The notes: generated by a model not told the origin, from the sequence alone. A DNA stretch of 64,000 nucleotides from Paludibacteraceae bacterium (GCA_031553005.1 JAVBMA010000008.1:78-64077), one strand, 5' to 3'. Positions 42,049 through 63,097 are shown, counted from the first letter of the stretch. Made by a program: numbers and translations.

Positions 42049-42768
42049 CTAATTCAATAGCTTATCGGCAAACGGAATAATCAGAGCCGTCATAATGCCC
42101 ATAATACCGATTGCCAATCCACTGATTGCACCTTCTACGGCTCCCATTTGCAAAGCCCGTACTGTTCCCAATGCATGGGAAGAAGCGCCCATAGCAAGTC
42201 CTTGGGCAACACGGCTCTTAATACCTAGCTTACGAAGGATAATGGGTCCTACTATACCGCCGAAAATGCCGCATATGACAACAAATGCCGTGGCAAGGGC
42301 TGGTATTCCTCCCGTTTTTTCGACAATGCTCATAGCAATAGGTGTTGTAACCGACTTGGGTTCTAAAGAGGCTATCAGAATTTTGTCGGCTCCGAACGCC
42401 TTGGCAATCAGGACAACACTGACGATACTGATTATGCTGCCGACAAAAATAGAGGTAAAAATAGAAACTACATTGCCTTTGATATGCTCCATTTGCTCGT
42501 ATAAGACATACCCCAAAGAGACAACACTGGGGCCAAGCATAAAATTCAGTATCCTTGTCTGTTGGTAGAATGTTTCATACGGGACGCCTGTAATTTTCAA
42601 AAAAGAGATAACCAGAATAATGGATATGACCAGCGGTTGAAGAAGACTTATTTTGGTCTTCTTATAAATATATACTCCTAAAAGGAATGTCCCCAGTACA
42701 AGTGTCAGGAGAAAAACTTCGGAAGAAAAAAGATCCTCAAGGGAAAGGATATGGGATAAGCGTTGCAT
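42049..42768 (-). CDS. lrgB: LrgB/CidB family membrane protein
   Basis: About 239 aa from ATG 42768, with LrgB-like motifs (SLEPKSVTTPIAM, GLAMGASSHALGT). No lrgA-like ORF lies upstream. Confidence 0.8.
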   Translation of the reverse strand: MQRLSHILSLEDLFSSEVFLLTLVLGTFLLGVYIYKKTKISLLQPLVISIILVISFLKITGVPYETFYQQTRILNFMLGPSVVSLGYVLYEQMEHIKGNVVSIFTSIFVGSIISIVSVVLIAKAFGADKILIASLEPKSVTTPIAMSIVEKTGGIPALATAFVVICGIFGGIVGPIILRKLGIKSRVAQGLAMGASSHALGTVRALQMGAVEGAISGLAIGIMGIMTALIIPFADKLLN

Positions 42769-42826
42769 GCACAAAATTAAGAAATGTAAAATTTATAATG
42801 TAGAATTTACAATGAAAATTTATAGG

Positions 42827-43035
42827 ATTATCCGCAATCATACCACTAATTTAGAAGATTCCACACGCCACTTTATGGCGTGTGGAATGACTGATATTTT
42901 CAGCGTGCGGAAGAAAACGGAGAGAGGCGGCTTTGCCGCCTCTCTCCACTCTATATCCTTATAAGTTACGTTATCATTCTGACCATAGGGAAGAATCTCT
43001 CAAAAACAATCTTTAGTAGTATGATTGCGGATAAT
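42827..43035. mobile_element. MITE-like element with 17-bp perfect terminal inverted repeats (no transposase)
   Basis: ATTATCCGCAATCATAC (42827-42843) and GTATGATTGCGGATAAT (43019-43035). Internal hairpins at 42858-42888 (12 bp) and 42919-42947 (13 bp, GC-rich). Confidence 0.5.
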
Positions 43036-43169
43036 TACATAAATTTATTACTTATCATAATTTATTACTTTATGGATAAGATTTTTATTCGTTCTCAATA
43101 GAGAAAAGATTCCGCACGCAACGCAGTGGTATGAGAAATCTTGCTTATCCCAAACTCGAAGTCACCGCC

Positions 43170-44723
43170 TCAGTAAACCGCCTTCAATTCGTCAAGCAGC
43201 GTTTGCATCCCGACAATTCCGGCACATGTAAAAAACGAGGTCATGGAAACGCCCAGTATTCCGTGCAGGTTCAGGTTTTGTCCGGTCAGCAACAGATTGG
43301 GAACAGGAGTGCGGGGAGTCAATATAGTATACATAAGTTGATTATAGTCTTTTTGTATTCCATATGCCGAACCGTCTGCTGTCCCGGTATAATCGCGATA
43401 AGAGAGCGGCGTACTGGTATATACCTTTTGAATGCCGTCTTTCAGTCCGGGAATATATTGGGATGCCAATTCAATGCATTCCGACGCTTTTTGGAGTTTT
43501 AAATCTTCATACTCATCCCCCCGCTTTCCGATAAAGGTATCATGCCACTTTTCAACCTCCGCCCAATGCATTGGTGTCAGGATATCCAAATTGCGAGCAT
43601 ACTCATCCTCTTGCTCCGGAACCCGGTAACTCACGAGCACGCAAGATGCTTTTTTACCAGCCTCATAATGGGAATAAGACCAGACATCATTTGTTTTATA
43701 GATATATTGGTTCCGGTTAAGGTAAGGCACTGCGCTTTCTTTTAAGCTGATATTGGCGGTAAACATACCATAGGTATTAGGCAATCCGCTGATCCTTTTC
43801 CGGTAAATCCTGCGAATTTGTTTACTTTCGGTAATCAACTCCAATGTTCGTGCCGGATGTATACCGGAAATAAAATATGTGGCAGAGATCCGCTCTTCAT
43901 TATTCACTTCAACGGCGGCAATCTTTCCGTTTTCCTCAATCAGGTGGGTTACCTTTGCTTTAGTCAAAACAACTCCTCCCCTCTCCCTTATTTTGGTTGC
44001 CAGAGCATCGGCAATCAGCGAACCGCCGCCATTGAGCCGCCAAGCGCTCTGTATAAACGAATTGTTTATTTGCGCGAAGATATAAAGCGGGAGTTTCTGC
44101 GGATTTAATTCCATCTTCAGCGAAGTGCCCGAAAGGACATTCCGTAAAACCGGATCTGTGATTGTTTCATTTAGGAAATTAAAAGCCGACTTTGAAAAAA
44201 CAGATGTTGAGTAAAACTCTTCTTCATTCTTTTTTTCAAAGCTATGGTAGAGGTTATCTCCTACTTGCTTAAGGAAAGAGGCATAGTTTTGCAGGTTCTT
44301 CCGTTGATGCGGGAACTCCGCAGCCAATGTCTCTACAAAACGCTCGTGCCCGTTGGCAAAGGAATATGATTTTCCGTTGAGAATTATCTCGTCAAAACAT
44401 CCTTCGTCCAACTTATGCCACGGCAGATCCATGAGTTCAAAATAGCGGAACAGCTTATGCAGGGATTGCCCTTCTTCCAATCCTCCAACATAATGGAATC
44501 CGGTATCAAAGGTGCTTTTGCCTCTCCTGAATGTTTGCAGGCAGCCTCCTATCTGGGGGTTTTGCTCCAATACGCAGACATTCAGGCCTTTTTTGCTCAG
44601 GATATATCCACACTCCAATCCTCCGAGTCCGCTTCCTATTATGACTACATCAAAAGCCTTTCCCGGGGTTTTCTCCGAAAAAGATTGAAAAGTATCCTGA
44701 GTTATTTTGTTATCTATTGACAT
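43170..44723 (-). CDS. NAD(P)/FAD-dependent oxidoreductase, phytoene desaturase (CrtI-like) family
   Basis: 517 aa with the dinucleotide-binding motif VVIIGSGLGGLECG...LEQNPQIGG. Confidence 0.8.
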   Translation of the reverse strand: MSIDNKITQDTFQSFSEKTPGKAFDVVIIGSGLGGLECGYILSKKGLNVCVLEQNPQIGGCLQTFRRGKSTFDTGFHYVGGLEEGQSLHKLFRYFELMDLPWHKLDEGCFDEIILNGKSYSFANGHERFVETLAAEFPHQRKNLQNYASFLKQVGDNLYHSFEKKNEEEFYSTSVFSKSAFNFLNETITDPVLRNVLSGTSLKMELNPQKLPLYIFAQINNSFIQSAWRLNGGGSLIADALATKIRERGGVVLTKAKVTHLIEENGKIAAVEVNNEERISATYFISGIHPARTLELITESKQIRRIYRKRISGLPNTYGMFTANISLKESAVPYLNRNQYIYKTNDVWSYSHYEAGKKASCVLVSYRVPEQEDEYARNLDILTPMHWAEVEKWHDTFIGKRGDEYEDLKLQKASECIELASQYIPGLKDGIQKVYTSTPLSYRDYTGTADGSAYGIQKDYNQLMYTILTPRTPVPNLLLTGQNLNLHGILGVSMTSFFTCAGIVGMQTLLDELKAVY

Positions 44724-44730
44724 TTGTAAA

Positions 44731-44762
44731 ATTGGTTAACTGACTAATTGACTTATTGATGA
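44731..44762. repeat. Short-period stop-rich array next to the oxidoreductase start
   Basis: ATTGGTTAACTGACTAATTGACTTATTGATGA. Confidence 0.55.
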
Positions 44763-44837
44763 AAATCAGGGTTTTCAACTCTTGATTCGCATAATCCACT
44801 AATTACTACAGTCGGGCAGCAGACAAAAAACGCCTTT

Positions 44838-44863
44838 TTACCTTTCACCTTTCAATTTTCAAC
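44838..44863 (-). repeat. GTGAAAG-family heptamer array containing the MMPL gene stop
   Basis: Minus-sense reads GTTGAAAAT TGA AAGGTGAAAGGTAA. The stop is at 44852-44854. Confidence 0.8.
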
Positions 44864-47800
44864 TAAAATAGAAAAAGGTGACGATCCATTTTCATCTTCC
44901 GGGGCTTCCGGAAAATTCGAAGGGATTAACTCTTTTAATAATGGAAGATCCTCTTTCCGGAAAATGATTGTATGTACCCGGGAAGTAAGTTGTCGGATAT
45001 CCTCCTTATCAGAAGAGGTTATTTTATTCAAAATCAAAACGTCGTATTCCTCTTTCAAAAGGATATCCTTATCCGAAGAAAAACTGATCCGTTCATTTTT
45101 CAAATAACAATTCTCAGCTATGGCTATTGCTTCCGGATTGGAATCGTATCCCGAGACAAGGTTGTTTTTTCCTCTTATCATAAACCAATAGGCGATAAAA
45201 CCGTATCCGCAACCATACACCAATACCCGTTCTTGCTCTTTTATATATGGCTCAAAGATAGCGTACTTACCGGTCTCTTTCAGCTCTTCTCTCAGTAATT
45301 TTTCCACAGCAACTCCCTTATATGCATAATTGCTACGGATTTTCTGAACATCGGAAAGTCCTTTTTTTCCGAAATAAGAATCAGCATGCAGCAAGCCATG
45401 AACTGTAAGAGGGGCCTTTCCGCGCAATGCAGGGCGCTTAATCAGCCAATAGAATAAAAACGGCTGCAATGAATAGGCAATCAGAACGGAGGTAGTCATC
45501 CCGATAAGGGTAGAAATCCCGATGGAAGATATAGCCGGGTGAACGGCAAAGAGCAACGATGCAATCCCGATAATCAATACTATTGCCGAAAAGAATATAG
45601 CAGTTTTATGATATGTCAGCAACTGGTAACGGGTGCGGTAGCCTACTAACAAGCCATCCATAATGAATATGCTGTAATCGACCCCGATACCGAATATAAA
45701 GGTGGAAATGACAATATTTATCAAATTGAACTGTAACCCGAAAATCCCCATAATACCCAGCACAATGTACCAACTCAGCGCCATCGGAAGAAAAGCAAGT
45801 ACAGACAAGAGGAAATTCCGGTAAGAGAGCAGCAGCACAATGAAAACGAAAACGGAAGATATGCCGAGTATCGTATTGAAATCATCGTTCATAATGCGTA
45901 CCATATCTTTGGTGTAGTAAAAAGGATCGATCACGATACTGTTTTTGTCAGCAGATAATATATCGCTTACATCCGCCAAATCCTCTATTCTATGTTGTAC
46001 GGGCGTAAATACGATATATGTACTATCGGTATACTCAATCATATTTGCCAGAATGGCAGAAGGTATCATTCCGGAATCATATATGGAAACGGGGTCATAT
46101 TTTTTATCCAATGCATCAAAAAATGGTTGGAACATCTCTGGACGAAAATTATAAGCTGTTGCCGCATGGGTCAGGTCTTTTTCCACCTGTTCTCTTCTCT
46201 CCTTGCTCCAATAAGCATTCCATCTGCTAATCTTCTTTTGCTGTCCGGACACCGGTATAAAAAGGGAGGATGATTTTGAAAAACCAAGTATCTTCTTTTC
46301 CTGCAGAAGGGTATCCATCAGTTGCATCATCTGCCCGCTATAAACCAATGCCGAATCCAAATCATGAGAAGTAGCAGCAAAATAAGTGGTTACATATCCG
46401 GGAAGCGTATGCGAAGCCAACAGGTCATGTGATTCGGTTACCTTTTTTTCATGATAACCGATATTTTTCAGGTCGGGATCAAACGTAACCCAGCGGGAGG
46501 TATAAAAACAGATTCCGCTCAGGACAACGATCGTTATAATCAGCCATGTCTGTTTTTCCAACGGGTATGAATTGATTTTTTCTAAAAAAGCAAAAGCTTT
46601 ATCCGAGCGTTTATTTTTTTCCGGATTAAAAAAGTGAGGCAGGAAAATTAAGCTAAAGAAGGTGGTTCCCGCTAAAGCCAATGAAGCGAAAATACCGAAA
46701 TCCTTCAGTAAATCGGACTGGGTAAACAGTAATGCCGCAAATGCGCCAATAGTGGTAAGGCAACCTAAAGTAACAGGAACAGCCTGATCTTTCAATACGG
46801 TAACGGGATCGCTCACATATTTGTAATGGGTTAGTACATGCAGGCAATAACTCAGGGCGACACCAAGCACTACCGCTCCGATACCCAACGCTTGCAAAGA
46901 CATACTGCCCTTGATAAAATAAATAATGGTAAGGGAGAAGAAAGCACCGTAAACTACCGGAGCCAATAAATAGATCAGTGATGATTTATTCCGGAAACAA
47001 TAGAGTATGATACCGCAAATAATCAACAACGATACAACAAGCGTTACTACCAGGTCTTTTTTTATCTGCCGGGAATTATATACACTTTGTGCAGGTGCGC
47101 CATGGTAGCTTATTTTTATTTCGGGATGGGAGGTTTGAAAACGGTCAATCTCATCTTCGAGCATCTCGATCAGCTTGATACTCTCTTTGGAGTTGAACGA
47201 TTGGAAATTGGGAGATATAAATGCAATGCCAATAACCGTATCGGGCGTAAAAAAGTATCCGTCTTTTATGATGTAATTCGAGCCGAGCCCATCTTGCATT
47301 GCTCCCATTTTATCAATAAAAATATTGCGGAATGCAACGGGATCGTTCATGATAATATCGCGGAAAGCCATTCCTGCTGGCGATAATAAATTCATATAGT
47401 TATCAGCCATCTGCTTTTCAATATTCTCCTTTGCCAGTATCGAATCCATCTTCACATAATCAATACTGTCGAGAAACAAAGGGATATTTCCATACAGGAA
47501 TCCGATGCTATTACGGATAAAATCGTCTTCTATTTTGTAGAGGGCATCCTCTATCACGCTCTTTTCCTGAGCCGAATCCCTTGCCAAAAGGGAACCGACA
47601 AAGCTATCGCATACAACAGCGAGTTCTTCCGGACGAACGGAACCGGCATCGGAAGCAAAAAGAATAAAGAGCTTGTCTTTTACTTTTAAATTGGCAAAAA
47701 CTACTTTTTCGGAACCTCCCGATTCGGTAGAGGGCAAAAGCTTGGAGATATCTTCTTCATACTCGACCTTCGAACCGAAATAGATAAAAAACAGGCTACT

Positions 47801-47875
47801 GAAAATCAGAATCAGATAAAGCAATACCGGATGTTTCCGGAAAAACTGATATATGTAAATGGTAAATCTGGTCAT
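44852..47875 (-). CDS. MMPL/RND-type exporter fused to a C-terminal class I SAM-dependent methyltransferase-like domain
   Basis: 1007 aa with two blocks of about 6 TM segments and large loops (MMPL topology). The last about 200 aa contain VLVYGCGYG (motif I), GYDSNPEA and YDVLILN. Confidence 0.7.
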   Translation of the reverse strand: MTRFTIYIYQFFRKHPVLLYLILIFSSLFFIYFGSKVEYEEDISKLLPSTESGGSEKVVFANLKVKDKLFILFASDAGSVRPEELAVVCDSFVGSLLARDSAQEKSVIEDALYKIEDDFIRNSIGFLYGNIPLFLDSIDYVKMDSILAKENIEKQMADNYMNLLSPAGMAFRDIIMNDPVAFRNIFIDKMGAMQDGLGSNYIIKDGYFFTPDTVIGIAFISPNFQSFNSKESIKLIEMLEDEIDRFQTSHPEIKISYHGAPAQSVYNSRQIKKDLVVTLVVSLLIICGIILYCFRNKSSLIYLLAPVVYGAFFSLTIIYFIKGSMSLQALGIGAVVLGVALSYCLHVLTHYKYVSDPVTVLKDQAVPVTLGCLTTIGAFAALLFTQSDLLKDFGIFASLALAGTTFFSLIFLPHFFNPEKNKRSDKAFAFLEKINSYPLEKQTWLIITIVVLSGICFYTSRWVTFDPDLKNIGYHEKKVTESHDLLASHTLPGYVTTYFAATSHDLDSALVYSGQMMQLMDTLLQEKKILGFSKSSSLFIPVSGQQKKISRWNAYWSKERREQVEKDLTHAATAYNFRPEMFQPFFDALDKKYDPVSIYDSGMIPSAILANMIEYTDSTYIVFTPVQHRIEDLADVSDILSADKNSIVIDPFYYTKDMVRIMNDDFNTILGISSVFVFIVLLLSYRNFLLSVLAFLPMALSWYIVLGIMGIFGLQFNLINIVISTFIFGIGVDYSIFIMDGLLVGYRTRYQLLTYHKTAIFFSAIVLIIGIASLLFAVHPAISSIGISTLIGMTTSVLIAYSLQPFLFYWLIKRPALRGKAPLTVHGLLHADSYFGKKGLSDVQKIRSNYAYKGVAVEKLLREELKETGKYAIFEPYIKEQERVLVYGCGYGFIAYWFMIRGKNNLVSGYDSNPEAIAIAENCYLKNERISFSSDKDILLKEEYDVLILNKITSSDKEDIRQLTSRVHTIIFRKEDLPLLKELIPSNFPEAPEDENGSSPFSILVEN

Positions 47876-47908
47876 CTTATTTTAATATAAAATTACTTAT
47901 GTTATTAA

Positions 47909-48040
47909 ACTTCGCGTCTTCGCATTTCAAGTGCTTGCGCTTTTCCTTTTTAACGCAAAGACGCGAAGGTCGGAAAGACGCAAAGATTTTTATTTAACGT
48001 AGTAAATTGCAAACTTGACAGCTTGCGATTTCAAGATTAT
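47909..48040. repeat. P-type palindromic repeat
   Basis: CTTCGCGTCTT (47910-47920) / AAGACGCGAAG (47958-47968). It shares CTTCGCATTT and GCTTGCGCTT with 57775-57868. Confidence 0.6.
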
Positions 48041-48044
48041 CTGT

Positions 48045-48120
48045 TTTTCTACCAGGCAATAATGCCTACGGCATATGGCAATAAAAATTCAAAATATTTT
48101 CTACAAATACATAGAAAATA
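48045..48120. repeat. N-type fragment
   Basis: TTTCTACC..ATGCC-TAC-GGCAT..TTTCTACAAATAC. Confidence 0.45.
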
Positions 48121-48238
48121 ATCTATATTTTCTGTTCTCTTGCTAAATCGCAAAAATAAGATTATCCCCTTCCCTTATACAACATTGACAATAAAGCTTT
48201 TCTAAATCAGCTCACATTAACTCAAATCACTCAACCTA

Positions 48239-48272
48239 AACTTTCACTTTTCACTTTTCACTTTTCAACTTC
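48239..48272 (-). repeat. GTGAAAG-family heptamer array containing the dehydratase stop
   Basis: Minus-sense reads GAAGTTGAAAAG TGA AAAGTGAAAAGTGAAAGTT. The stop is at 48258-48260. Confidence 0.85.
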
Positions 48273-48635
48273 AAGCTCTCCCTTTAAATCCACAAAAGAG
48301 ACCGTATTTTCAGGATTAGTAATAGTTGCTTTTATCTTGTATGATTCTTCTCCGGTTTCGGTAATCTGCACACGGACAAAGAGTTCGGAGTTTTGTGCAG
48401 GAATTATTACGGACAAAAATTTGCATTGGGAAATCCGTTTCAATAGTAATTTTTTTCCGGTCTCCTGTTGAACGCACTCCTTGATCATCTGTATATTGCA
48501 AACTCCGGGTGCAACCGGCATATCCGGAAAATGCCCTTTGTAAACTTTATACGAAGGGTTCAGGGCAACTGAGAAAATCACGCTGTTTTCTTCCTCTATT
48601 CTGTCCTGTATGGTAAAATATTCTCCTAAAAGCAT
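48258..48635 (-). CDS. FabZ-like 3-hydroxyacyl-ACP dehydratase (hotdog fold)
   Basis: 125 aa with GHFPDMPVAPGV, the FabZ/FabA active-site motif. Confidence 0.7.
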   Translation of the reverse strand: MLLGEYFTIQDRIEEENSVIFSVALNPSYKVYKGHFPDMPVAPGVCNIQMIKECVQQETGKKLLLKRISQCKFLSVIIPAQNSELFVRVQITETGEESYKIKATITNPENTVSFVDLKGELEVEK

Positions 48636-48689
48636 ATTGAGTAACTGTTTAAAATTTTTATCACAAAATTATTAGATGTCCTCAAGCCG

Positions 48690-48895
48690 GACAAGCTCTT
48701 ACTTTTTTCCAGCAGCTGAAAAAAGTAAGCAAAAAAAGCCGCCGCTGTGGATTCTTCGCTAAAAATCTTCTGCATTACACTAAAACGTTTTAAACTCCTC
48801 CCTACGGTCGTCAGACAAAAAACGTTTTTTAACGCTCCATTCCGAAAATTTTCTTAACGCTTCGCCTCCAAGGCGGATGGAGCAGTAGCACCTTT
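48690..48895. repeat. Q-type cluster of hairpins inside the lipid cluster spacer
   Basis: CTTACTTTTTT..AAAAAAGTAAG (11 bp), CGCCTCCAAGGCG, CTCCAT(T)CCG...CGGATGGAG. Confidence 0.5.
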
Positions 48896-49000
48896 AGCAA
48901 AAATTTTTTATATCAAATTCATCTTAATATAAAATTTAAACAGTTTCCGAATAAAATTTAGAATTGATAGAAAAACGATCTCCGGTTTTCAACTTTCCGT

Positions 49001-49447
49001 TTATACATCCCAACGTTTTTTCCAATTGTCGAAAAAATCGGGATTGGAGATTTCAAAAATGCCGTCTTTCGTCATAAAAAGCTGGATAGAGGTAGCTTTC
49101 AACACAAGCGACTTATCGTTTTTCCGGTAAATAGTATATTCGAAAATAAGTTTTGCCGCCCGGCTGGGCACATAAGCTATCTCGATAATTATAGTATCGC
49201 CTACGGAAACAGGTTGTTTGTATTGAAGGTGCATATCGACAATCGGAGCTACATAGCCGCTGTTAAACATATACATGTATTCCAATCCGAATTTCCGCCC
49301 GAAAGCCTCTCTTGCATCTTCCATATATTTGACATAGTTTCCATGCCAAACCATATTGATAGAGTCAACCTCACTGAAACGGACATCTACCTCGATGCTC
49401 TCTGTCAGTTTTGGGAAGTCAGCCGCATCGCCACCTTGTTTTTTCAT
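49001..49447 (-). CDS. Acyl-CoA/acyl-ACP thioesterase (4HBT, YbgC-like hotdog)
   Basis: 148 aa with VRFSEVDSINMVWHGNYVKYMEDAR, typical of the 4HBT family. Confidence 0.75.
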   Translation of the reverse strand: MKKQGGDAADFPKLTESIEVDVRFSEVDSINMVWHGNYVKYMEDAREAFGRKFGLEYMYMFNSGYVAPIVDMHLQYKQPVSVGDTIIIEIAYVPSRAAKLIFEYTIYRKNDKSLVLKATSIQLFMTKDGIFEISNPDFFDNWKKRWDV

Positions 49448-49472
49448 ACAAAACGTTCATTTACGACAAACC

Positions 49473-49874
49473 TTATTCCTTAATAAATATTTTCATCTGG
49501 CAGGTTGCCACTGTACGGTCGCCCACTTTAGTTTCGGCAGAAAGGAGGCTTATATTCATCACTTCCGACAAAATGCGTATGTGTGTAACCAATTTATCGC
49601 CAACCCCGGGAAGTTCCAATGTCTCATATTTTTTGACTTCGCCGATAAAACCAACCGGAACCGGCTGATTTTTCTGTTTTGCCTTGTAACCGGCAAAAGC
49701 CGATGCAGACTGGGCAATATGCTCAATCAAGCCGGGTTCGGTAAAACGTCCGGACTCGCAAAACAAATTGTCCGGCAAAACGGTCAATCCCGTTACACAA
49801 TTATTTTCCTCCGCACTATACAGCACATCAACCATTATGATCGGCTCTCTCTGGGGAATAAAATCCTTCATCAT
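49473..49874 (-). CDS. Hotdog-fold dehydratase-like protein (ApeI/ApeP-type candidate)
   Basis: Start set at ATG 49874 (MMKDFIPQREP...). The upstream 28 codons of ORF 49473..49958 are read from the stop-free strand of the heptamer array. Confidence 0.5.
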   Translation of the reverse strand: MMKDFIPQREPIIMVDVLYSAEENNCVTGLTVLPDNLFCESGRFTEPGLIEHIAQSASAFAGYKAKQKNQPVPVGFIGEVKKYETLELPGVGDKLVTHIRILSEVMNISLLSAETKVGDRTVATCQMKIFIKE

Positions 49875-49878
49875 TATA

Positions 49879-49981
49879 GGTGAAAATTGAAAGGTGAAAA
49901 CTGAAATAGTTGAAAAGTGAAAAGTGAAAGGTGAAAGCTTTTTTATCTCACCTTTCATCTTTCACTTTTCACCTTTCACCC
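49879..49981. repeat. Inverted pair of GTGAAAG-family arrays between the ACP stop and the dehydratase start
   Basis: Plus-oriented units at 49879-49937 and minus-oriented units at 49947-49981. The ACP TGA (49976-49978) lies inside the second arm. Confidence 0.85.
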
Positions 49982-50221
49982 ATTTAACCTTTGGTAAATA
50001 AAATCGTACAGGCTTTCGAATGTTTGAACGGCTGCGATTTCCTGACCTTTAATTTTTACATTGAATGTATTTTCAATCAGAGCTACCAAATCAACCAAAC
50101 TCAAGCTATCCAGCATTAAAGTGGCTTTTATATTTGCATCGGGAGTAATTTCGGAAACTTCGATTTCAAACTCTTCTGCCAATACTTCATTCACTTGCTC
50201 TATCAATTCTTGCTTTTCCAT
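49976..50221 (-). CDS. Acyl carrier protein
   Basis: 81 aa with the LDSLSLVDLV phosphopantetheine attachment motif. Confidence 0.85.
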   Translation of the reverse strand: MEKQELIEQVNEVLAEEFEIEVSEITPDANIKATLMLDSLSLVDLVALIENTFNVKIKGQEIAAVQTFESLYDFIYQRLNG

Positions 50222-50258
50222 GCGTTGTAAATAATTTCGTTATTAATTATGTGTTTTC

Positions 50259-50293
50259 TTATTTATCTGATTATCTGACCATCTGATTATCTA
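50259..50293 (-). repeat. Period-8 stop-rich array starting with the KS stop codon
   Basis: Minus-sense reads TAG ATAATCA GATGGTCA GATAATCA GATAAATAA. Confidence 0.65.
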
Positions 50294-51514
50294 CTTTATA
50301 TCCTTCACGATCAAGGTGGAGTTTGTCCCTCCGAATCCGAAGGAGTTGGAAAGGAACATATCGAAATTTTTATCCACCCGTTGGGAAGGGATATTAAGTT
50401 TTGCGGAATCTTCGTCCGGATTTTCGAAATTGAGGTTTGGTGCGATAAAACCGTTCTTCATCATCAGCATCGAGTAAATTATCTCGCTAGCTCCCGCCAT
50501 CCACATTTCGTGTCCGGTCATCGATTTGGTCGAAGTTACTTCCGGGTTGTAGTCTCCGAAAACTCCGGAAATGGCTTTTGCCTCATTCTTATCGCCTACC
50601 GGAGTAGAAGTGGCATGTGCATTGATATAGCCGATTTCCTTCAGGTTTATTCCGGCTTCCCTGATTGCCATCTCCAACGAGCGGCTTGGGCCGTCTACGT
50701 TCGGAACGGAAATATGGTCGCCGTTGGATGAGAAACCGTATCCGGTAATTTCAGCCAAGATAGGCGCGCCACGTTTTATTGCCGACTCATAACTTTCGAT
50801 AATTACGGTAGCCGCTCCACCTCCTGGAACCAATCCGTCTCGATCGCGGTCGAACGGGCGGGATGCTTTCGCCGGATCGCTTTCGCGGACGGAAAAAGCG
50901 CTGATACCATCGAAACTACCGATAGAAAACGGATTGACTTCCTGTGCACCGCCACATATAATGCAATCCTGCAATCCCCACTTGATAAGCAACGAACCCA
51001 GCCCGATTGCGTGCGAGCCACTTGCACAGGCTCCGGAAACGGTCAGGTTCATACCTTTCAGTTTAAAGATGCATGCCAGATTCATGGTAACGGTAGAGTT
51101 CATGGACTGGAAAATGGCTCCCGAACCGATGAGGGTCGTGTCCTTTTTCTGGCGCATGATGTCTACGCTATTAACTACGGGATCGGCACTACTGTCATTT
51201 CCATATAATATACCTACTTCGTGGCTTTCCAGATAATCCATATCCAGTTTTGCATTTTTCAATGCTTCGCTGGTTGCTACATAAGCGTATTTACCTTGTT
51301 CGGGCATATATACACGTTGATTGCGGCTTAATACGCCTTTGAGGTCGGGAACTTCTAAAAAAGCGGTTAACGCGGAACGGAATCCCATCTCTTTGCGGGC
51401 AGGGTCAAAAACAATTCCCGACTTGCCTGTATAAAGAGATTCACGTACTTCTTCCATGTTTTTTCCTAAACATGAATAAATTCCCATTCCGGTAATCACA
51501 ACTCGTCTTTCCAT
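50291..51514 (-). CDS. Beta-ketoacyl-ACP synthase (KAS I/II family)
   Basis: 407 aa with active-site Cys (GACASGSHAIG) and His motifs (NAHATSTPVGD, SMTGHEMWMAG). Confidence 0.9.
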   Translation of the reverse strand: MERRVVITGMGIYSCLGKNMEEVRESLYTGKSGIVFDPARKEMGFRSALTAFLEVPDLKGVLSRNQRVYMPEQGKYAYVATSEALKNAKLDMDYLESHEVGILYGNDSSADPVVNSVDIMRQKKDTTLIGSGAIFQSMNSTVTMNLACIFKLKGMNLTVSGACASGSHAIGLGSLLIKWGLQDCIICGGAQEVNPFSIGSFDGISAFSVRESDPAKASRPFDRDRDGLVPGGGAATVIIESYESAIKRGAPILAEITGYGFSSNGDHISVPNVDGPSRSLEMAIREAGINLKEIGYINAHATSTPVGDKNEAKAISGVFGDYNPEVTSTKSMTGHEMWMAGASEIIYSMLMMKNGFIAPNLNFENPDEDSAKLNIPSQRVDKNFDMFLSNSFGFGGTNSTLIVKDIK

Positions 51515-51670
51515 ATATCTAATTTAAATTTATTTCAGTTTTTATCATACGCCAGAGTCCCGTTTCATTTACTTCGACATGAAGACACAAAGGCGTAAAG
51601 AAAATATAAATTGCAGTCTCTTTACCTTTAAAATATTTCTGACAACTTCCCCTACCTACAGCCACTCACC

Positions 51671-51699
51671 TTAACTTTCACCTTTCACTTTTCAACTTC
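51671..51699 (-). repeat. GTGAAAG-family heptamer array, 8 nt after the acyltransferase stop
   Basis: Minus-sense reads GAAGTTGAAAAGTGAAAGGTGAAAGTTAA. Confidence 0.8.
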
Positions 51700-51704
51700 T
51701 ACCC

Positions 51705-53102
51705 TCAAGCGGACTTCTGATATCCGTCAACAATACTTGATTTCAGTTCAATGTCTAAACATGAAAATATTTCTTTCCTTAATTGAATCAAATCCTGAAT
51801 TTTCCCACTTTTCAACAGCTTCCGGAAGCGTATTTCACTCCTCCATTTGATGAACGTTTTACGGTAATTCCATGCAAAAAGTCCAATAAACGGCAAAGTA
51901 AATAAATAAATCATAGCTATCCAAAACGAACCGGAGATAATCCGGCACAGGGCAAAGGCGAGGGTATAGAACAGAGGGATTGTAGCTAACACGCTGAGTC
52001 CGAAATTAAACGAACCGTAAAACATCTTATCTTTCAGCTTTCTGTTTATCAACCGGGGAGCCAGAAAAATAATGATATTCGGAATCAGGGAAAAAATAAA
52101 CAGGGGAAATAGCACTATATAGAGAAGAGCTCTTAACAATATAGAAAATATAGAAAATTTTCCATCAAAATTCCAATCCCTGATATTGAATTTCAATGTT
52201 TCTTCTTTTAATTTCAATACTTTCCGGAACAGGGCTTCTGTTTTTGATTCTTCTTTCTCCTTCAAATCTGCCATATCAGCAATAAATGCTTTATCCGAAA
52301 GCAATCTGTCCGGTAAAAGACCGGACTTGAACCCTCTTTTCTTTGCGTATTTTGCTCCGTATGTATTCCTGAGGTAATCCAACGCTTCATAATTTTCCAA
52401 ATCGGTGATATTAAGCATCAATTGCTCTATCTGTTCACGAACCAGCCTGTTTACCTCCCGCTGAGCCGTCCTCGGCTTTGTCTTATACAGCTCATAATAA
52501 GGAGCTAACGAGATAGGAGTCCCGAATTTAATCACTAACTCTTCCTGTATGCTAAAATAATTGGAATAATGGTTGCACGAGGGCAAAATAAGGATATCAT
52601 CCTGAAAACCTGCCTTTTCGGCAGCTCCGAATGCAAGCCTCAGATAGCCCAAGGAAAATTCACCCAGCCATCTTTTATCCTGATGTCCCGCTTCGGGATA
52701 GATAATAACCGACCGGCCTTTCATCAACTCCTTTCCGGCAGCTTCAAAAGTCTCGTTATTATTACCAAGCGCCGCTTCACCTTCATAATCCAACCTGAAA
52801 GCGGGCAACAGCCCGATAAAACGTAAAAATTTATTGGCTACCGGATGTTTAAATACATCGGCGCGTGCAATGAAGTTTGCCTTCCGTTTTCCCAAAGCAA
52901 AAAGGATACCGAGCGGATCATTCAGGCAGTTCTGGTGATTGGAAACAATCATCACGGGAGTTCCGTTTACCGGAATATTTTCCTGATTTACGGTGTATGT
53001 TTTTCTATAAAATATCTTATCGTGAAAAAAACGTACATAAGAGCGAAACATTTTGAAAGCCAATCCCGGCTTTAATTTTTCCGCATTTTCGTTTATGTTC
53101 AT
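51705..53102 (-). CDS. Lysophospholipid acyltransferase (LPLAT/PlsC family) with a C-terminal membrane domain
   Basis: 465 aa with HX4D (NHQNCLND) and YPEAGHQ motifs, plus C-terminal TM helices. Confidence 0.75.
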   Translation of the reverse strand: MNINENAEKLKPGLAFKMFRSYVRFFHDKIFYRKTYTVNQENIPVNGTPVMIVSNHQNCLNDPLGILFALGKRKANFIARADVFKHPVANKFLRFIGLLPAFRLDYEGEAALGNNNETFEAAGKELMKGRSVIIYPEAGHQDKRWLGEFSLGYLRLAFGAAEKAGFQDDILILPSCNHYSNYFSIQEELVIKFGTPISLAPYYELYKTKPRTAQREVNRLVREQIEQLMLNITDLENYEALDYLRNTYGAKYAKKRGFKSGLLPDRLLSDKAFIADMADLKEKEESKTEALFRKVLKLKEETLKFNIRDWNFDGKFSIFSILLRALLYIVLFPLFIFSLIPNIIIFLAPRLINRKLKDKMFYGSFNFGLSVLATIPLFYTLAFALCRIISGSFWIAMIYLFTLPFIGLFAWNYRKTFIKWRSEIRFRKLLKSGKIQDLIQLRKEIFSCLDIELKSSIVDGYQKSA

Positions 53103-53481: not shown

Positions 53482-53557
53482 GAGTTAGTAGCTCAGCTGG
53501 TAGAGCACATCCCTTTTAAGGATGGGGTCCTGGGTTCGAGCCCCAGCTGACTCACCA
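53482..53557 (+). tRNA. tRNA-Lys (anticodon TTT), CCA encoded
   Basis: Acceptor GAGTTAG/CTGACTC, anticodon loop CTTTTAA, T-loop GGTTCGAGCC. Confidence 0.9.
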
Positions 53558-53629: not shown

Positions 53630-53745
53630 AATACTTTAACCACAAAGTACACAAAGTTTTACACTAAAGGGCACAAAAAATAACAATTGACTATCAATAA
53701 ATTTTCCTTGTGTACTTTGTGGTAAAGAATTGACATTGCTGCTTT
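53630..53745. repeat. M-type MITE-like palindromic element, copy 2 (opposite orientation to copy 1)
   Basis: CCACAAAGTACACAAAGTTTTACACTAAAGGGCACAAA matches the reverse complement of 30819-30857. Its own inverted repeat partner is CCTTGTGTACTTTGTGG. Confidence 0.7.
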
Positions 53746-59693: not shown

Positions 59694-59918
59694 TTAGCCA
59701 CCCTTCGGGGATGAAGTTAATTGCTTCCTTACATATTCCGAACGTTCTTCTTCCGTATCAAACTTTTCTTTTAAGAAATTGGGAAAGAAAAACAGTTTCA
59801 GTACCAAAAACATAATTGTCAGCTTAATGAGAATGATAGGCCAAAGGACTCGTCCAATAGTCATACTTCGAAACCCATTGTAATAAAAGAAAAATATTTT
59901 TCTCGGAATATTATTCAT
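59694..59918 (-). CDS. DUF4492 small membrane protein (cydAB-associated in Bacteroidota)
   Basis: 74 aa with one or two TM segments, positioned directly upstream of cydA. Confidence 0.6.
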   Translation of the reverse strand: MNNIPRKIFFFYYNGFRSMTIGRVLWPIILIKLTIMFLVLKLFFFPNFLKEKFDTEEERSEYVRKQLTSSPKGG

Positions 59919-60024
59919 GCAAATGCGTTTAATTTTTCATATTTAGGACTTTCTTTCCGCTATTTAGCAAACGTGCAAACAAATATAAATAATTTTAATT
60001 ATTTAAAAACATATCAAAAACACT

Positions 60025-60069
60025 AAAAAGAAAAAAACGCACAGATTATTTTTCAACAATCTGTGCGTT
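60025..60069 (-). terminator. Hairpin terminator downstream of the DUF3078 gene
   Basis: AACGCACAGATT / AATCTGTGCGTT: 12-bp perfect stem. A T-run follows on the minus strand. Confidence 0.5.
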
Positions 60070-60185
60070 AACTCATTTTATAGCAAAATCAAATTAATAT
60101 TATCTTTGGGACTGATGCAGATACTCTAATTAAAAAATATCAAAAGTCTCACCATAAACTAATTTTTGACTCTTCTTTATATTTC

Positions 60186-61145
60186 TTAAAAATTATACGA
60201 GAATCCAACGGCAATCACATCCATAAACTGGACTTTCGGTCCGCCTTCAACGGTTGTCGGTACACCATCGATGACAACATCTTTTGTACTCTTGACATCA
60301 TCGTCATACTTCACTTGTGTACGGATAGAGGCGTTGATATATTTATTGACTTTCATAGATATTAGCAACTCCCAATTGACAACGACATTGCCGAAGGTTT
60401 CATAAGCGCTAAACAACTCTAGTTTACTGTTCAGGCTAATATTTTTCACTATATCAAAATTATTGAGTACGGTGGCATAAGCTCCGAATTCGGATTTTAT
60501 TCTTTTACCTTCATCTACACCGTATTTTGTCGATAATATTGTATCGCGTACAAAAATAAAACGGGCTGTAGTTGGCGAAACATAGAGCGATACATATTTA
60601 TTCGGGATATAATTCATACCGATAGAGGCAATGAGATAGCCGGGCGCCAAAAAGTCGGAAACATAGGTGCGGGTACTGTCATTCGGGTAATCATAGCCTT
60701 TATTAAACTGTGTTTTAAAATCTATCAATGCGGCATAATACCAATACTTGGTAGCCTGATAACCCAGATTGGAGGTTAAACTGAGTTTGTCGGAGTTTTT
60801 TCTCCAATTAAAATCTTTATTTGCTTCAGAATAGAACATGCCATACTCAGCCGAAAGATTATTAATCCAAAGCAACTTGTGCTTTTTATAATTTGCATTC
60901 AGTTGGACAAACGCACTTCCGGCTATTGAATTCTGTCCGCCTTCAGCCCAGTTGACAAATGCTGTTTGCGAGAAATTTAATCCCGTTAAACCCGGAAAAC
61001 GCCAATAAGTCGTATCTTTTGATGCCGCTTTTATCGAATCAATAGAAATATTGTTCGTACCCTTTGAGGCTGTCAATAAATCACTTTGAGCATACAATGA
61101 AATACTCAAAACCGCGAATAAAACTCCTAATAAAATTTTCTTCAT
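60186..61145 (-). CDS. DUF3078 outer-membrane protein
   Basis: 319 aa with a signal peptide, GLNFSQTAFVNWAEGGQNS motif and a C-terminal ..GFSYNF. Confidence 0.65.
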   Translation of the reverse strand: MKKILLGVLFAVLSISLYAQSDLLTASKGTNNISIDSIKAASKDTTYWRFPGLTGLNFSQTAFVNWAEGGQNSIAGSAFVQLNANYKKHKLLWINNLSAEYGMFYSEANKDFNWRKNSDKLSLTSNLGYQATKYWYYAALIDFKTQFNKGYDYPNDSTRTYVSDFLAPGYLIASIGMNYIPNKYVSLYVSPTTARFIFVRDTILSTKYGVDEGKRIKSEFGAYATVLNNFDIVKNISLNSKLELFSAYETFGNVVVNWELLISMKVNKYINASIRTQVKYDDDVKSTKDVVIDGVPTTVEGGPKVQFMDVIAVGFSYNF

Positions 61146-61627
61146 CTTACAAACTATATTTTAGTATATTATAATTAACAATCAAATCGGCAAAAAGTAA
61201 TTATTTCGGCAAAAATAAAGGTATTTTATGACTTTTTTCATTCTGATTACCTATTTAAAACAAAACAAGAGCAATTTTTGATTTTTTTAGAAATAAGTAT
61301 TTAATAAAAAAGATATATCATACGCATGCTAAATTAACATAAGTTCAATAAAAGACAGAATATAACAGATTGATTTTCAGCAAAATTAAATCCGAATTAT
61401 TTCGTTAAGCAATGGACAGAAACAAAATTTATTTTAGTTATGCCGTTACAAGAAATAATCGAATGGAGTTGTACAAATTGGATTATCACCTTATCTTCTA
61501 TAAATATGCAATACCTTCTTGAGAATAAAATTTTCCATATCAAACTCCATTTATTAGCTTTTGAGGGTACTTAAAACGATTTCTAATTCTTTGAATTCCG
61601 ATTATCCACATTCAAATTTTTATTTCT

Positions 61628-61635
61628 TATTTTTG
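61628..61635 (+). promoter_or_regulatory. -7 promoter box (TATTTTTG) for rlmD
   Basis: 53 nt upstream of the ATG. Confidence 0.4.
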
Positions 61636-61687
61636 CACAAGTAAATATTACTTATTCAACCTCCGTAAAATTCATAAAAACAATCCG

Positions 61688-63097
61688 ATGACAAGAAAAA
61701 AAAAGCAATTGCCTTTAATAGAAAATATTGAAATAACAGACATTGCAAACGAAGGAAAAGCAATTGCAAAGCTGGATAATATGGTCATTTTTACACAATA
61801 TGTTGTTCCGGGAGATGTTGTGGATATACAAGTTACCAAAAAGAAAAACAGCTACATGGAAGGGAAAGTGGTCAAAGTTCACTCTTTTTCCCAAAAAAGA
61901 GAAGTCCCTTTTTGTACTCATTACGGAGTTTGCGGCGGTTGTAAATGGCAAATTCTTCCATATCAGGAACAAATCAATCATAAAGAAAAACAAGTTATCA
62001 ATAACTTAACCCGCATCGGGAAAGTAGATTTGCCGGAAATCACGCCTATTTTGGGTTCCGAAAAAACCGTTTTTTACCGGAATAAACTGGAATTTACATT
62101 TTCCAACAAACGTTGGCTTACCGAAGAGCAGATTAAATCGGGAGAAACATTCGACAATATGAATGCACTCGGGTTTCATATTCCCGGAATGTTTGACAAA
62201 GTATTGGATATCGACAAGTGTTTTCTTCAGGAAGAAATTTCCAACGAGATACGAAATGCAATAAAGTCGTATGCCCTTGAACATGATTTGCCGTTTTTTG
62301 ACATACGGAACCAAGACGGATTATTAAGAAATATCATTATCCGTACATCCAGTACGGGAGAAACTATGTTGATTGTGGTCTTCTACAAAGAAAATAAAAA
62401 GGAGATTGAATCGTTATTAAATTACGTTGCCAACACGTTTCCTCAGATTACATCACTTATCTACATTATCAACGGAAAATGTAATGATACGATTACAGAC
62501 CAGGAAACAATCCTTTTTAAAGGAAGAGATTATATTCTGGAAGAAATGGAGGGATTGAAATTTAAAATAGGTCCAAAATCGTTTTACCAGACTAATAGCA
62601 AGCAAGCATACGAGTTGTATAAAATAACAAGGGACTTTGCGGCATTAACGGGAGAAGAGCTTGTATATGACCTTTATACGGGAACCGGAACAATAGCTTG
62701 CTTTGTAGCCAAACAGGCAAAAAAAGTGATTGGAATTGAGTATGTTCCCGAAGCGATTGAAGATGCAAAAGTCAATGCGGCAAACAACAAACTGGACAAC
62801 ACGCTTTTTTTTGCAGGCGATATGAAAAATATCCTTAATCAGGAATTTATAAACCAATACGGGCGTCCGGATGTTATAATCACCGACCCTCCGCGCGACG
62901 GGATGCATGCCGACGTTGTAGAGACCATTTTATTTGCAGAGCCTCAGCGTATCGTATATGTAAGTTGCAATCCGGCAACACAGGCGCGTGACCTGAATTT
63001 ATTAGATACTAAATATAAAGTAACAGCGGTTCAGCCAGTAGACATGTTTCCGCATACGCACCACGTAGAAAATGTTGTGTTGCTGGAAAGAAAATAG
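61688..63097 (+). CDS. rlmD: 23S rRNA (uracil-5-)-methyltransferase (RumA/RlmD family)
   Basis: 469 aa with a TRAM domain N-terminus, Fe-S Cys cluster (CTHYGVCGGCKWQ), DLYTGTGT SAM motif, DPPR and the catalytic VSCNP. Confidence 0.85.
   Translation: MTRKKKQLPLIENIEITDIANEGKAIAKLDNMVIFTQYVVPGDVVDIQVTKKKNSYMEGKVVKVHSFSQKREVPFCTHYGVCGGCKWQILPYQEQINHKEKQVINNLTRIGKVDLPEITPILGSEKTVFYRNKLEFTFSNKRWLTEEQIKSGETFDNMNALGFHIPGMFDKVLDIDKCFLQEEISNEIRNAIKSYALEHDLPFFDIRNQDGLLRNIIIRTSSTGETMLIVVFYKENKKEIESLLNYVANTFPQITSLIYIINGKCNDTITDQETILFKGRDYILEEMEGLKFKIGPKSFYQTNSKQAYELYKITRDFAALTGEELVYDLYTGTGTIACFVAKQAKKVIGIEYVPEAIEDAKVNAANNKLDNTLFFAGDMKNILNQEFINQYGRPDVIITDPPRDGMHADVVETILFAEPQRIVYVSCNPATQARDLNLLDTKYKVTAVQPVDMFPHTHHVENVVLLERK

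Follow-up and report, generated by a model that had tools for sequence, protein, structure and literature searches.

Can a compact set of eight lipid genes make its product alone, or is it one part of a larger pathway whose other genes lie elsewhere in the genome? The question is raised by a locus at positions 43170-53102 of a 64,000-nucleotide stretch of DNA from a Paludibacteraceae bacterium (GCA_031553005.1 JAVBMA010000008.1:78-64077; this whole stretch is referred to as the window). A first-pass annotation had described the locus as a compact, stand-alone cluster related to those for aryl polyenes (APE) and flexirubins, without a ketoreductase (KR), a chain-length factor (CLF) or starter-unit enzymes. 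Our analysis points to a different answer. Judged by its genes and their relatives, the cluster is probably a paralogous ‘satellite’ module for chain building and export within a flexirubin-type aryl-polyene pigment-lipid pathway, rather than an autonomous minimal cluster, and it most likely works jointly with a second locus on contig C18 of the same genome. The locus is a new architectural variant of the well-known flexirubin system, not a new pathway.

The source assembly (labelled G000; C8, C18, C40 and so on are its contigs) comprises 2.88 Mb in 77 contigs and is 98.5% complete. Eight intact, co-directional open reading frames (ORFs) were called on the minus strand of the window between 43170 and 53102, and the ORFs together with their Pfam and NCBIfam matches bore out the eight genes, the limits of the cluster and the domain assignments of the first-pass annotation. 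The order in which it had listed them needs correction. Transcription runs through an LPLAT acyltransferase (AT), a ketosynthase (KS), an acyl carrier protein (ACP), a first hotdog protein (DH1), a thioesterase (TE), a second hotdog protein (DH2), an MMPL exporter and a FAD oxidoreductase (FADox), so that TE lies between the two dehydratase-like genes, and the MMPL exporter, correctly recognised, is fused to a methyltransferase (MT) domain. The genes correspond to flx C, D, F, H, S, U and V, plus a separate membrane LPLAT. Annotation with Pfam and NCBIfam placed no gene for a KR, CLF, ammonia-lyase, AMP-ligase, glycosyltransferase (GT) or LolA within 43170-53102. The absence of KR, CLF and starter genes had been claimed, and it holds for the cluster but not for the genome, which has a second locus at C18:34168-63653 and a FlxU on C8.

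Known systems were compared using the paralogs on C18, the NCBIfam Flx and Dar models and published tables, with gene roles taken from PMC3992019 Table S4. The reference flexirubin clusters are flxA-flxY plus dar in Chitinophaga pinensis and Fjoh_1074-1110 in Flavobacterium johnsoniae (Schöner et al. 2014, PMC3992019, Tables S4/S5). Flexirubin genes of G000 are found at three sites, namely a canonical flxA-flxT plus dar locus on C18, an orphan FlxU on C8 and the window module. The C18 locus is a complete flexirubin-type cluster in an apparently anaerobic, Paludibacteraceae-like Bacteroidales genome. It begins with the tyrosine ammonia-lyase (TAL) FlxA, the KR FlxB, a KS, an ACP, an LpxL-type acyltransferase, a B12-binding radical-SAM protein and a dehydratase (DH). 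About 5 kb of unassigned ORFs follow, then a TE, a 588-aa KS, a KS/CLF pair, a polysaccharide deacetylase, LolA and LolB2. The locus ends with a 313-aa protein at the DarA position, DarB, DarG, a BtrH-like protein, an ABC transporter, another KS/CLF pair, an ApeI-like DH and a GT2-DUF2062 protein. This is the published flx/dar order of C. pinensis (flxA-flxV) and F. johnsoniae. LolB2 scored 111 bits (cut-off 60) and the DarG family 138 bits (cut-off 70) with NCBIfam models, and the 313-aa DarA candidate upstream of DarB matched no model. Among the unassigned ORFs that split the cluster (C18:41225-45961) is one for a 447-aa protein, of which partial copies recur on C51, C64 and C3.

When the eight window proteins were searched against the assembly by tblastn, C18 yielded paralogs of five of them (KS, ACP, DH1, TE and DH2) at 44-67% identity, and three further KS genes. 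The kinship with aryl-polyene and flexirubin clusters that had been proposed is correct. The first-pass annotation had itself said that its reading of a compact stand-alone cluster would fall if the remaining flexirubin genes lay in a second locus, and this is where they were found. The flavoenzyme adds a further tie: tblastn found no second FlxV-type flavoenzyme in the genome, so that the window FADox is the only copy. It is 40-43% identical to the genes at the FlxV position (after FlxU) of three relatives, G112, G110 and G138, and keeps the GxGxxG FAD motif. The orphan FlxU on C8 is flanked by an AsnC-type regulator and housekeeping genes, and has no FlxV after it, unlike that of G112, G110, G138 and G125.

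The distribution of the module in other genomes shows how it relates to the rest of the pathway. Seven public relatives were found via the flavoenzyme, all of them Bacteroidales metagenome-assembled genomes (MAGs; Paludibacteraceae, Ca. Enterocola and others). The unit AT-KS-ACP-DH1-TE-DH2-MMPL-FADox is present in G001, G003-G006, G070, G125, G143, G146, G156 and G136; a KR usually comes after it, and in many cases a LolA-like gene as well. Contiguous canonical clusters with the order TAL-KR-KS-ACP-LpxL-...-DH-GT2-FlxU-FADox are present in G112, G110 and G138. Three configurations of the module can be distinguished. In the first (a), split and single-copy, the module of G003-G005 and G156 holds the only KR, FlxC-type KS, DH1, DH2 and TE, while TAL, ACP, LpxL, the 588-aa-type KS, KS/CLF, deacetylase, LolA, GT2 and FlxU are encoded at a separate locus; in these genomes the module and the TAL/KS-CLF locus must cooperate. 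In the second (b), double, G000, G001 and G070 combine a full canonical cluster with a KR-less module that has an MT domain on the MMPL protein. In the third (c), G136 and the MAG G006 have the module alone, and their only other KS is FabF.

The KR gives the clearest link between the two loci. Exactly one FlxB-type KR per genome was found in 16 of 16 Bacteroidales genomes, even where KS, ACP, DH and TE are duplicated. It is sited in the canonical cluster in G000, G001 and G070, and in the module in G002-G006, G125, G143, G136 and G156. The next-best KR matches in the 16 genomes are FabG-like, at 37-46% identity, and the KRs within the relatives' modules are 61-71% identical to C18 FlxB. The case for the module and the TAL/KS-CLF locus forming one system is made most strongly by this one-KR rule in combination with configuration (a). 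The rule also suggests that the KR serving the module in this genome is C18 FlxB rather than the housekeeping FabG on which the cluster had been thought to rely; given the identity of the relatives' module KRs to FlxB and the single FlxB-type KR in each genome, FlxB is the likely donor.

Co-occurrence points the same way. In a sample of 151 Bacteroidales genomes, each from a different family or nearly so, FADox was found in 42, CLF in 43 and both in 40 (Fisher p = 1.7e-30). A FlxC-type KS was present in 43 of the 151 and absent from 108, and 41 of the 43 were CLF-positive. Two FlxC-type KSs occurred only in G000, G070 and G146 among the genomes sampled, and no further duplication was seen in the 400 other Bacteroidota genomes of a 401-genome phylum-wide KS search, where the KS was a single copy at 64-68% identity. 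The pairing with CLF was counted in the Bacteroidales sample, and the phylum-wide search covered KS.

The origin of the module was approached through trees. The KS tree was rooted with FabF and the two CLF-partner KSs. In it, 11 module KSs group together (SH-aLRT 99) inside the Bacteroidales FlxC-type KSs. A clade of their own, with support 100, unites the C18 KS copies of G000 and G001, and the second KS copies of G070 and G146 branch deeply. On this topology the module goes back to an old rearrangement or duplication that took place inside a group of Bacteroidales families. Horizontal import from another phylum was also considered and is rejected, since the module KSs are nested in the Bacteroidales FlxC clade. 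A KS phylogeny had been proposed as a check on the first-pass annotation, and here its expectation stood: the window KS does not cluster with housekeeping FabF but falls in the FlxC clade, being 66.6% identical to the C18 KS beside FlxB (67% when rounded) and 35% identical to the FabF on C40. In the flavoenzyme tree, the FlxV-position clade has support 100, and a long branch lies between it and the module-type genes; both types are held by G125 and G070, and the module type only by G000. Between the window genes and their G001 orthologs, synonymous divergence (dS) is saturated and non-synonymous divergence (dN) is 0.11-0.41. Taken together, these values indicate long-term purifying selection and not decay.

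Table 1. Features of the window locus and of the other flexirubin sites of the genome. Positions without a contig prefix are those of the window.
Feature	Position	Strand	Size	Evidence and remarks
AT, LPLAT/PlsC-type acyltransferase	51705-53102	-	465 aa	PF01553, 53 bits
KS, KAS I/II, FabB-like stand-alone ketosynthase, FlxC paralog	50291-51514	-	407 aa	PF00109, PF02801
ACP, acyl carrier protein, FlxD paralog	49976-50221	-	81 aa	PF00550; 54% identical to ACP at C18:37942
DH1, hotdog protein, FlxF paralog	49473-49874 (ORF as listed to 49958)	-	161 aa (ORF as listed)	Weak FabZ NCBIfam matches
TE, 4HBT/YbgC-type thioesterase, FlxH paralog	49001-49447	-	148 aa	PF13279, PF03061, TIGR00051
DH2, FabA/ApeI-like hotdog dehydratase, FlxS paralog	48258-48635	-	125 aa	PF07977, 26.4 bits (cut-off 23)
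MMPL-MT, MMPL/HAE3-type RND exporter with C-terminal SAM-methyltransferase-like domain	44852-47875	-	1007 aa	PF03176, 67.6 bits
FADox, CrtI/CrtISO/RetSat-superfamily FAD oxidoreductase, FlxV paralog	43170-44723	-	517 aa	PF01593, PF13450
tRNA-Lys(TTT)	53482-53557	+		ARAGORN; upstream bound of cluster
Miniature inverted-repeat transposable element (MITE), 34-nt terminal inverted repeats	42816-43046	.	231 bp	36 BLAST matches; directly past last gene
Hairpin resembling a repetitive extragenic palindrome (REP), 17-nt arms	47910-47968	.		12 BLAST matches; in 382-nt DH2-MMPL spacer
MITE, 27-nt terminal inverted repeats	48635-48953	.	319 bp	57 BLAST matches, <=92% identical; between TE and DH2
Palindromic GTGAAAA-rich repeat, inverted repeats	49878-49978	.		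33 BLAST matches; between ACP and DH1
Hairpin repeat, 19-nt arms	53636-53726	.		47 BLAST matches; beyond tRNA
FlxA tyrosine ammonia-lyase	C18:34168-35691			NF053541, 870 bits (cut-off 700)
FlxB SDR ketoreductase	C18:35718-36524			NF053542, 408 bits (cut-off 340); sole FlxB-type KR in genome
DarB	C18:54309-55454			NF053539, 566 bits (cut-off 550)
Two KS/CLF pairs	C18:48790-51077 and 59771-62036			PF00109/PF02801 plus PF13723
FlxU-type MMPL-AT-MT exporter	C8:53367-57221		1284 aa	Orphan, apart from other flexirubin genes

The individual proteins of the module are listed in Table 1. The AT has an NHQNCLND (HX5D) motif and a hydrophobic C-terminal third that forms a membrane-anchor tail. HX5D is conserved in the alignment of its module orthologs, which lie upstream of KS in G003, G005, G006, G070 and G146, and also in paralogs on C3 and C76 that are probably housekeeping. 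The KS sequence retains the active-site set of Cys (GACASG), two His (HATSTP, GHEMW) and Lys, and its scores fall below the cut-offs of both NCBIfam equivalogs, at 381 bits for FabB (NF005935, cut-off 630) and 341 bits for FabF (TIGR03150, cut-off 494). TE is 47% identical to C18:46120 and keeps the catalytic Asp.

The two hotdog proteins differ in their catalytic residues. DH2, which is 44% identical to C18:62095 and scores 24.1 bits against the ApeI-like family PF22818 (under its 28.5 cut-off), keeps with its orthologs the His of GHFPxxPxxPG and the downstream Glu. DH1 is 47% identical to C18:40489; alignment of DH1 with all its orthologs, including the canonical genes at the FlxF position, shows no FabZ catalytic His, with GRFTEPG...IEHIAQ and no HFP motif. 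DH1 is probably a non-catalytic partner of DH2, and the natural reading of the pair, by analogy with ApeI/ApeP and mycobacterial HadAB, is a catalytic/non-catalytic heterodimer. Codons 1 to about 28 of the DH1 ORF (49875-49958) are translated palindromic repeat, with the peptide MKGEIKKLSPFTFHFSTISVFTFQFSPI. The true start is placed at about 49874, as the orthologs start at M29/M30. Gene callers would give DH1 a false 28-residue N-terminus, since the longest ORF starts inside the repeat.

FlxU has been described as an exporter that "contains acyl- and methyltransferase domains", and the published cluster continues with two more genes after the GT2 position (PMC3992019). With the 1284-aa MMPL-AT-MT protein on C8 the window MMPL protein shares 38% identity, and 27% in the MT portion; its residues 880-970 give weak methyltransferase matches and contain the MT GxGxG motif. 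By its predicted domain layout, this protein is the FlxU architecture without its acyltransferase domain. FADox misses the cut-offs of the NCBIfam families it resembles (given in brackets), scoring 140 bits for TIGR02733 (550), 93 for TIGR02730 (587) and 71 for TIGR02734 (238), and its sole PDB match is a remote CrtI (4dgk, E = 1e-8). Assignment as a carotenoid desaturase or isomerase of the CrtI, CrtD or CrtISO type was rejected because these family cut-offs were missed, which leaves superfamily membership only. An order-wide search also showed that many Bacteroidales flexirubin-type clusters contain two tandem RetSat/CrtI-like flavoenzymes that are about 33-47% identical to the window FADox (e.g. 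G013:C6:54716-57693, G104:C76, G054:C3, G062:C27, G099:C5 and G107:C9).

Compared with the published flexirubin clusters, the window genes are a second copy, set apart from the main cluster as one compact unit of eight genes. Their exporter has no internal acyltransferase domain; instead, the first gene of the unit encodes a free-standing HX5D LPLAT with a membrane tail. The flavoenzyme and the gene at the FlxV position fall into different paralog clades, and the unit is without KR, CLF, TAL, LolA and GT. The C. pinensis and F. johnsoniae tables (PMC3992019) list no such duplicated module.

The aryl-polyene (ape) clusters of E. coli CFT073 and Xenorhabdus doucetiae (apeA-apeR) offer a second comparison. 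Their core set in one cluster comprises KSs (ApeO/R), a CLF (ApeC), two ACPs, DHs (ApeI/P), a KR (ApeQ) and ApeM (10.1101/2020.12.19.423268, Fig. 1). The window unit has one KS, one ACP and neither CLF nor KR, and the set is complete only with C18 added. The likenesses include type II elongation free of an enoyl reductase, a FabB-like homodimeric KS (ApeR) beside a KS/CLF pair, two ACPs, the dehydratase pair ApeI/ApeP, the 4HBT thioesterase ApeK, the LPLAT ApeD, the MMPL protein ApeM and the methyltransferase ApeB. They would extend to a product bearing two polyene chains, of which one, a conjugated fatty acyl without an aryl group, is placed by the LPLAT. However, the window unit is without the AMP-ligase ApeH, ApeG, ApeN and the GT/AT protein ApeJ, and no CrtI-like flavoenzyme occurs in ape clusters. 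KS is also nearer to FabB than to ApeR, and DH2 stays under the cut-off of the ApeI-like family; individual ape genes are treated here as putative counterparts.

Published work on these clusters provides a precedent for what the module may do. Besides the aryl polyene, Xenorhabdus APE-lipids contain a conjugated C26:5 acyl chain. The presumed carrier for its synthesis is ApeF, a second ACP, and the LPLAT ApeD is presumed to place it at sn-2 (10.1101/2020.12.19.423268). E. coli mutants in apeR (the FabB-like KS), apeD or apeJ still make the APE acid, but its attachment fails (PMC8253772). The triad at the head of the module, LPLAT, FabB-like KS and ACP, parallels ApeD/ApeR/ApeF by analogy. The canonical cluster has its own triad, FlxC-FlxD-FlxE, with an LpxL-type acyltransferase of another family than the module LPLAT. 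Two triads with different acyltransferase families may serve different acceptors.

A scheme can be proposed on this basis. Elongation would take place on the module's own ACP without an enoyl reductase, with KS condensing, C18 FlxB reducing and a DH1:DH2 heterodimer dehydrating, and would yield a conjugated polyenoyl chain. The thioesterase may proofread or release this chain, the LPLAT would place it on a glycerolipid acceptor, and the RetSat/CrtISO-like flavoenzyme may isomerise or saturate a double bond of the polyene. MMPL-MT would then carry the product toward the outer membrane. The module would in this way supply a second acyl chain, or an acceptor branch, of the same pigment-lipid system.

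Several observations weigh against joint working of the module with the C18 locus. Each biosynthetic enzyme of the module is encoded a second time on C18, meaning that the module is not obviously required for flexirubin here and may have a redundant role or another one. The AT of the module is a member of the HX5D LPLAT subfamily, unlike the AT domain of FlxU, which has HX4D. Among PDB entries, KS is nearer to true FabB enzymes (the best matches, ~300 bits; FabF ~250) than to A. baumannii ApeR (7F27, 232 bits), which makes the ApeR analogy functional and not one of orthology. Three repeat insertions between genes could disturb co-transcription. Finally, neither a CLF-type KS nor a FlxA-type TAL was found in G136 (5.1 Mb, 99% complete) or G006, and the module can therefore be retained in the absence of the aryl-polyene machinery.

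This last point is the main support for an autonomous second pathway, in which the module, with FabG or FlxB as its KR, would make and export a non-aryl conjugated polyenoyl glycerolipid unrelated to flexirubin, in essence the proposal of the first-pass annotation. The module plus a KR is a full elongation cycle without an enoyl reductase, with an AT and an exporter in addition; it moves as a unit without synteny of its flanks, and G000, G001 and G070 retain it alongside the full canonical set. These arguments are opposed by the rarity and quality of the module-only genomes, as KS/CLF is clearly absent in only one of the 43 sampled Bacteroidales genomes with a FlxC-type KS, the FADox frame of G136 has an in-frame TAA, and G006 is a MAG. 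They are opposed more directly by G003-G005 and G156, where the module enzymes are the sole KR, DH and TE for the TAL/KS-CLF locus, and by the one FlxB-type KR per genome at either locus, the module here having none. We consider an autonomous pathway unlikely, although it is the alternative that survives best. The G136 locus itself (G136:C97, locus L043:5209-13264) has the order KS-ACP-DH1-DH2-MMPL-FADox-KR-x-TE with the single TAA in the FADox frame, and the only ammonia-lyase of that genome is HutH-like, at 31%.

A bolder proposal, which we hold to be speculative and doubtful, is that the module, with or without KR and LolA, suffices by itself in anaerobic Bacteroidales to make and export conjugated-polyene glycerolipids of a class not yet described. 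Its reductive enzymes would be shared with the KS/CLF line in most lineages. The module would work alone in G136 and form a second product line beside flexirubin here, and the flavoenzyme would carry out an oxygen-independent saturation or isomerisation of an ACP- or lipid-bound polyene.

The repeats in and around the locus bear on a further alternative, that of a redundant or decaying duplicate. At least five distinct MITE- or REP-like repeat families touch the 10-kb locus, at both borders and between genes, each with 12-57 BLAST matches (counted in the whole genome and including the query's own copy). A tRNA and a MITE on one side and a MITE-like element on the other had been described as the borders of the cluster; these stand, and repeats occur additionally between genes. 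TE and DH2 are spaced by 5-50 nt in relatives, and the repeat-bearing spacers are regarded as insertions because the same genes abut or overlap there. Where the MITE at 42816-43046 lies, relatives carry KR and LolA, in the order FADox-KR(-LolA). On this account the module would be a remnant of a duplication or rearrangement, worn down as MITEs inserted and KR and LolA were lost, and contributing nothing except perhaps the FlxV function, and the three repeat insertions between genes that abut in relatives, the MITE in the place of the lost KR and LolA, and the duplication of every biosynthetic function on C18 all fit it. Decay is nevertheless quite improbable. All eight ORFs are intact, no repeat interrupts a coding sequence, all being confined to spacers, and the catalytic motifs are kept (KS Cys/His/His, DH2 GHFP/Glu, TE Asp, FAD GxGxxG and MT GxGxG). 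The KR-less module with a fused MT is also intact in G001 and G070, with synonymous sites saturated and amino-acid identity of 50-84%. A housekeeping branch making cis-unsaturated membrane fatty acids with a FabB-like KS and a FabA-like DH is essentially excluded: the best PDB and NCBIfam matches of KS are to FabB and DH2 matches the FabA Pfam family, but the KS score is 381 bits against a FabB cut-off of 630, 108 of the 151 Bacteroidales genomes lack the KS family, whose occurrence follows that of CLF, the neighbouring genes encode an exporter, a thioesterase and a CrtI-like flavoenzyme, and the housekeeping fabF-acpP of the genome is on C40.

Transcription signals and flanking genes were also inspected. 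TAnnTTTG is the Bacteroides-type promoter motif. It was found upstream of AT, and 36 nt before DH2 inside the 319-bp MITE, a weak signal given 7 matches in 10 kb; a scan for sigma-70 promoters and terminators was uninformative for Bacteroidota. The immediate flanks are unrelated genes, with LrgB on one side and tRNA-Lys, Ogt, the nucleoid protein NA37, a HAD hydrolase and cytochrome bd on the other. The flank genes LrgB, DUF4270, Ogt, NA37 and cytochrome bd gave zero tblastn matches in any related locus, and neighbourhood synteny could therefore not date the insertion of the module. In the LrgB region (42049-43169) there is no lrgA-like gene upstream of LrgB, and a 395-nt spacer with the 231-bp MITE is present instead.

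Reading the locus as a satellite of the flexirubin pathway has consequences beyond this genome. Flexirubin and aryl-polyene clusters are among the commonest biosynthetic gene clusters in Gram-negative bacteria, and those who mine Bacteroidales genomes should match an ‘incomplete’ APE-like cluster with a second locus before claiming novelty for it. The lineage studied here is a natural dissection of the pathway, in which seven or eight genes travel together as the only copy, as a second copy, or in one case as the sole polyene genes. This suggests that the flx cluster consists of two separable sub-machines.

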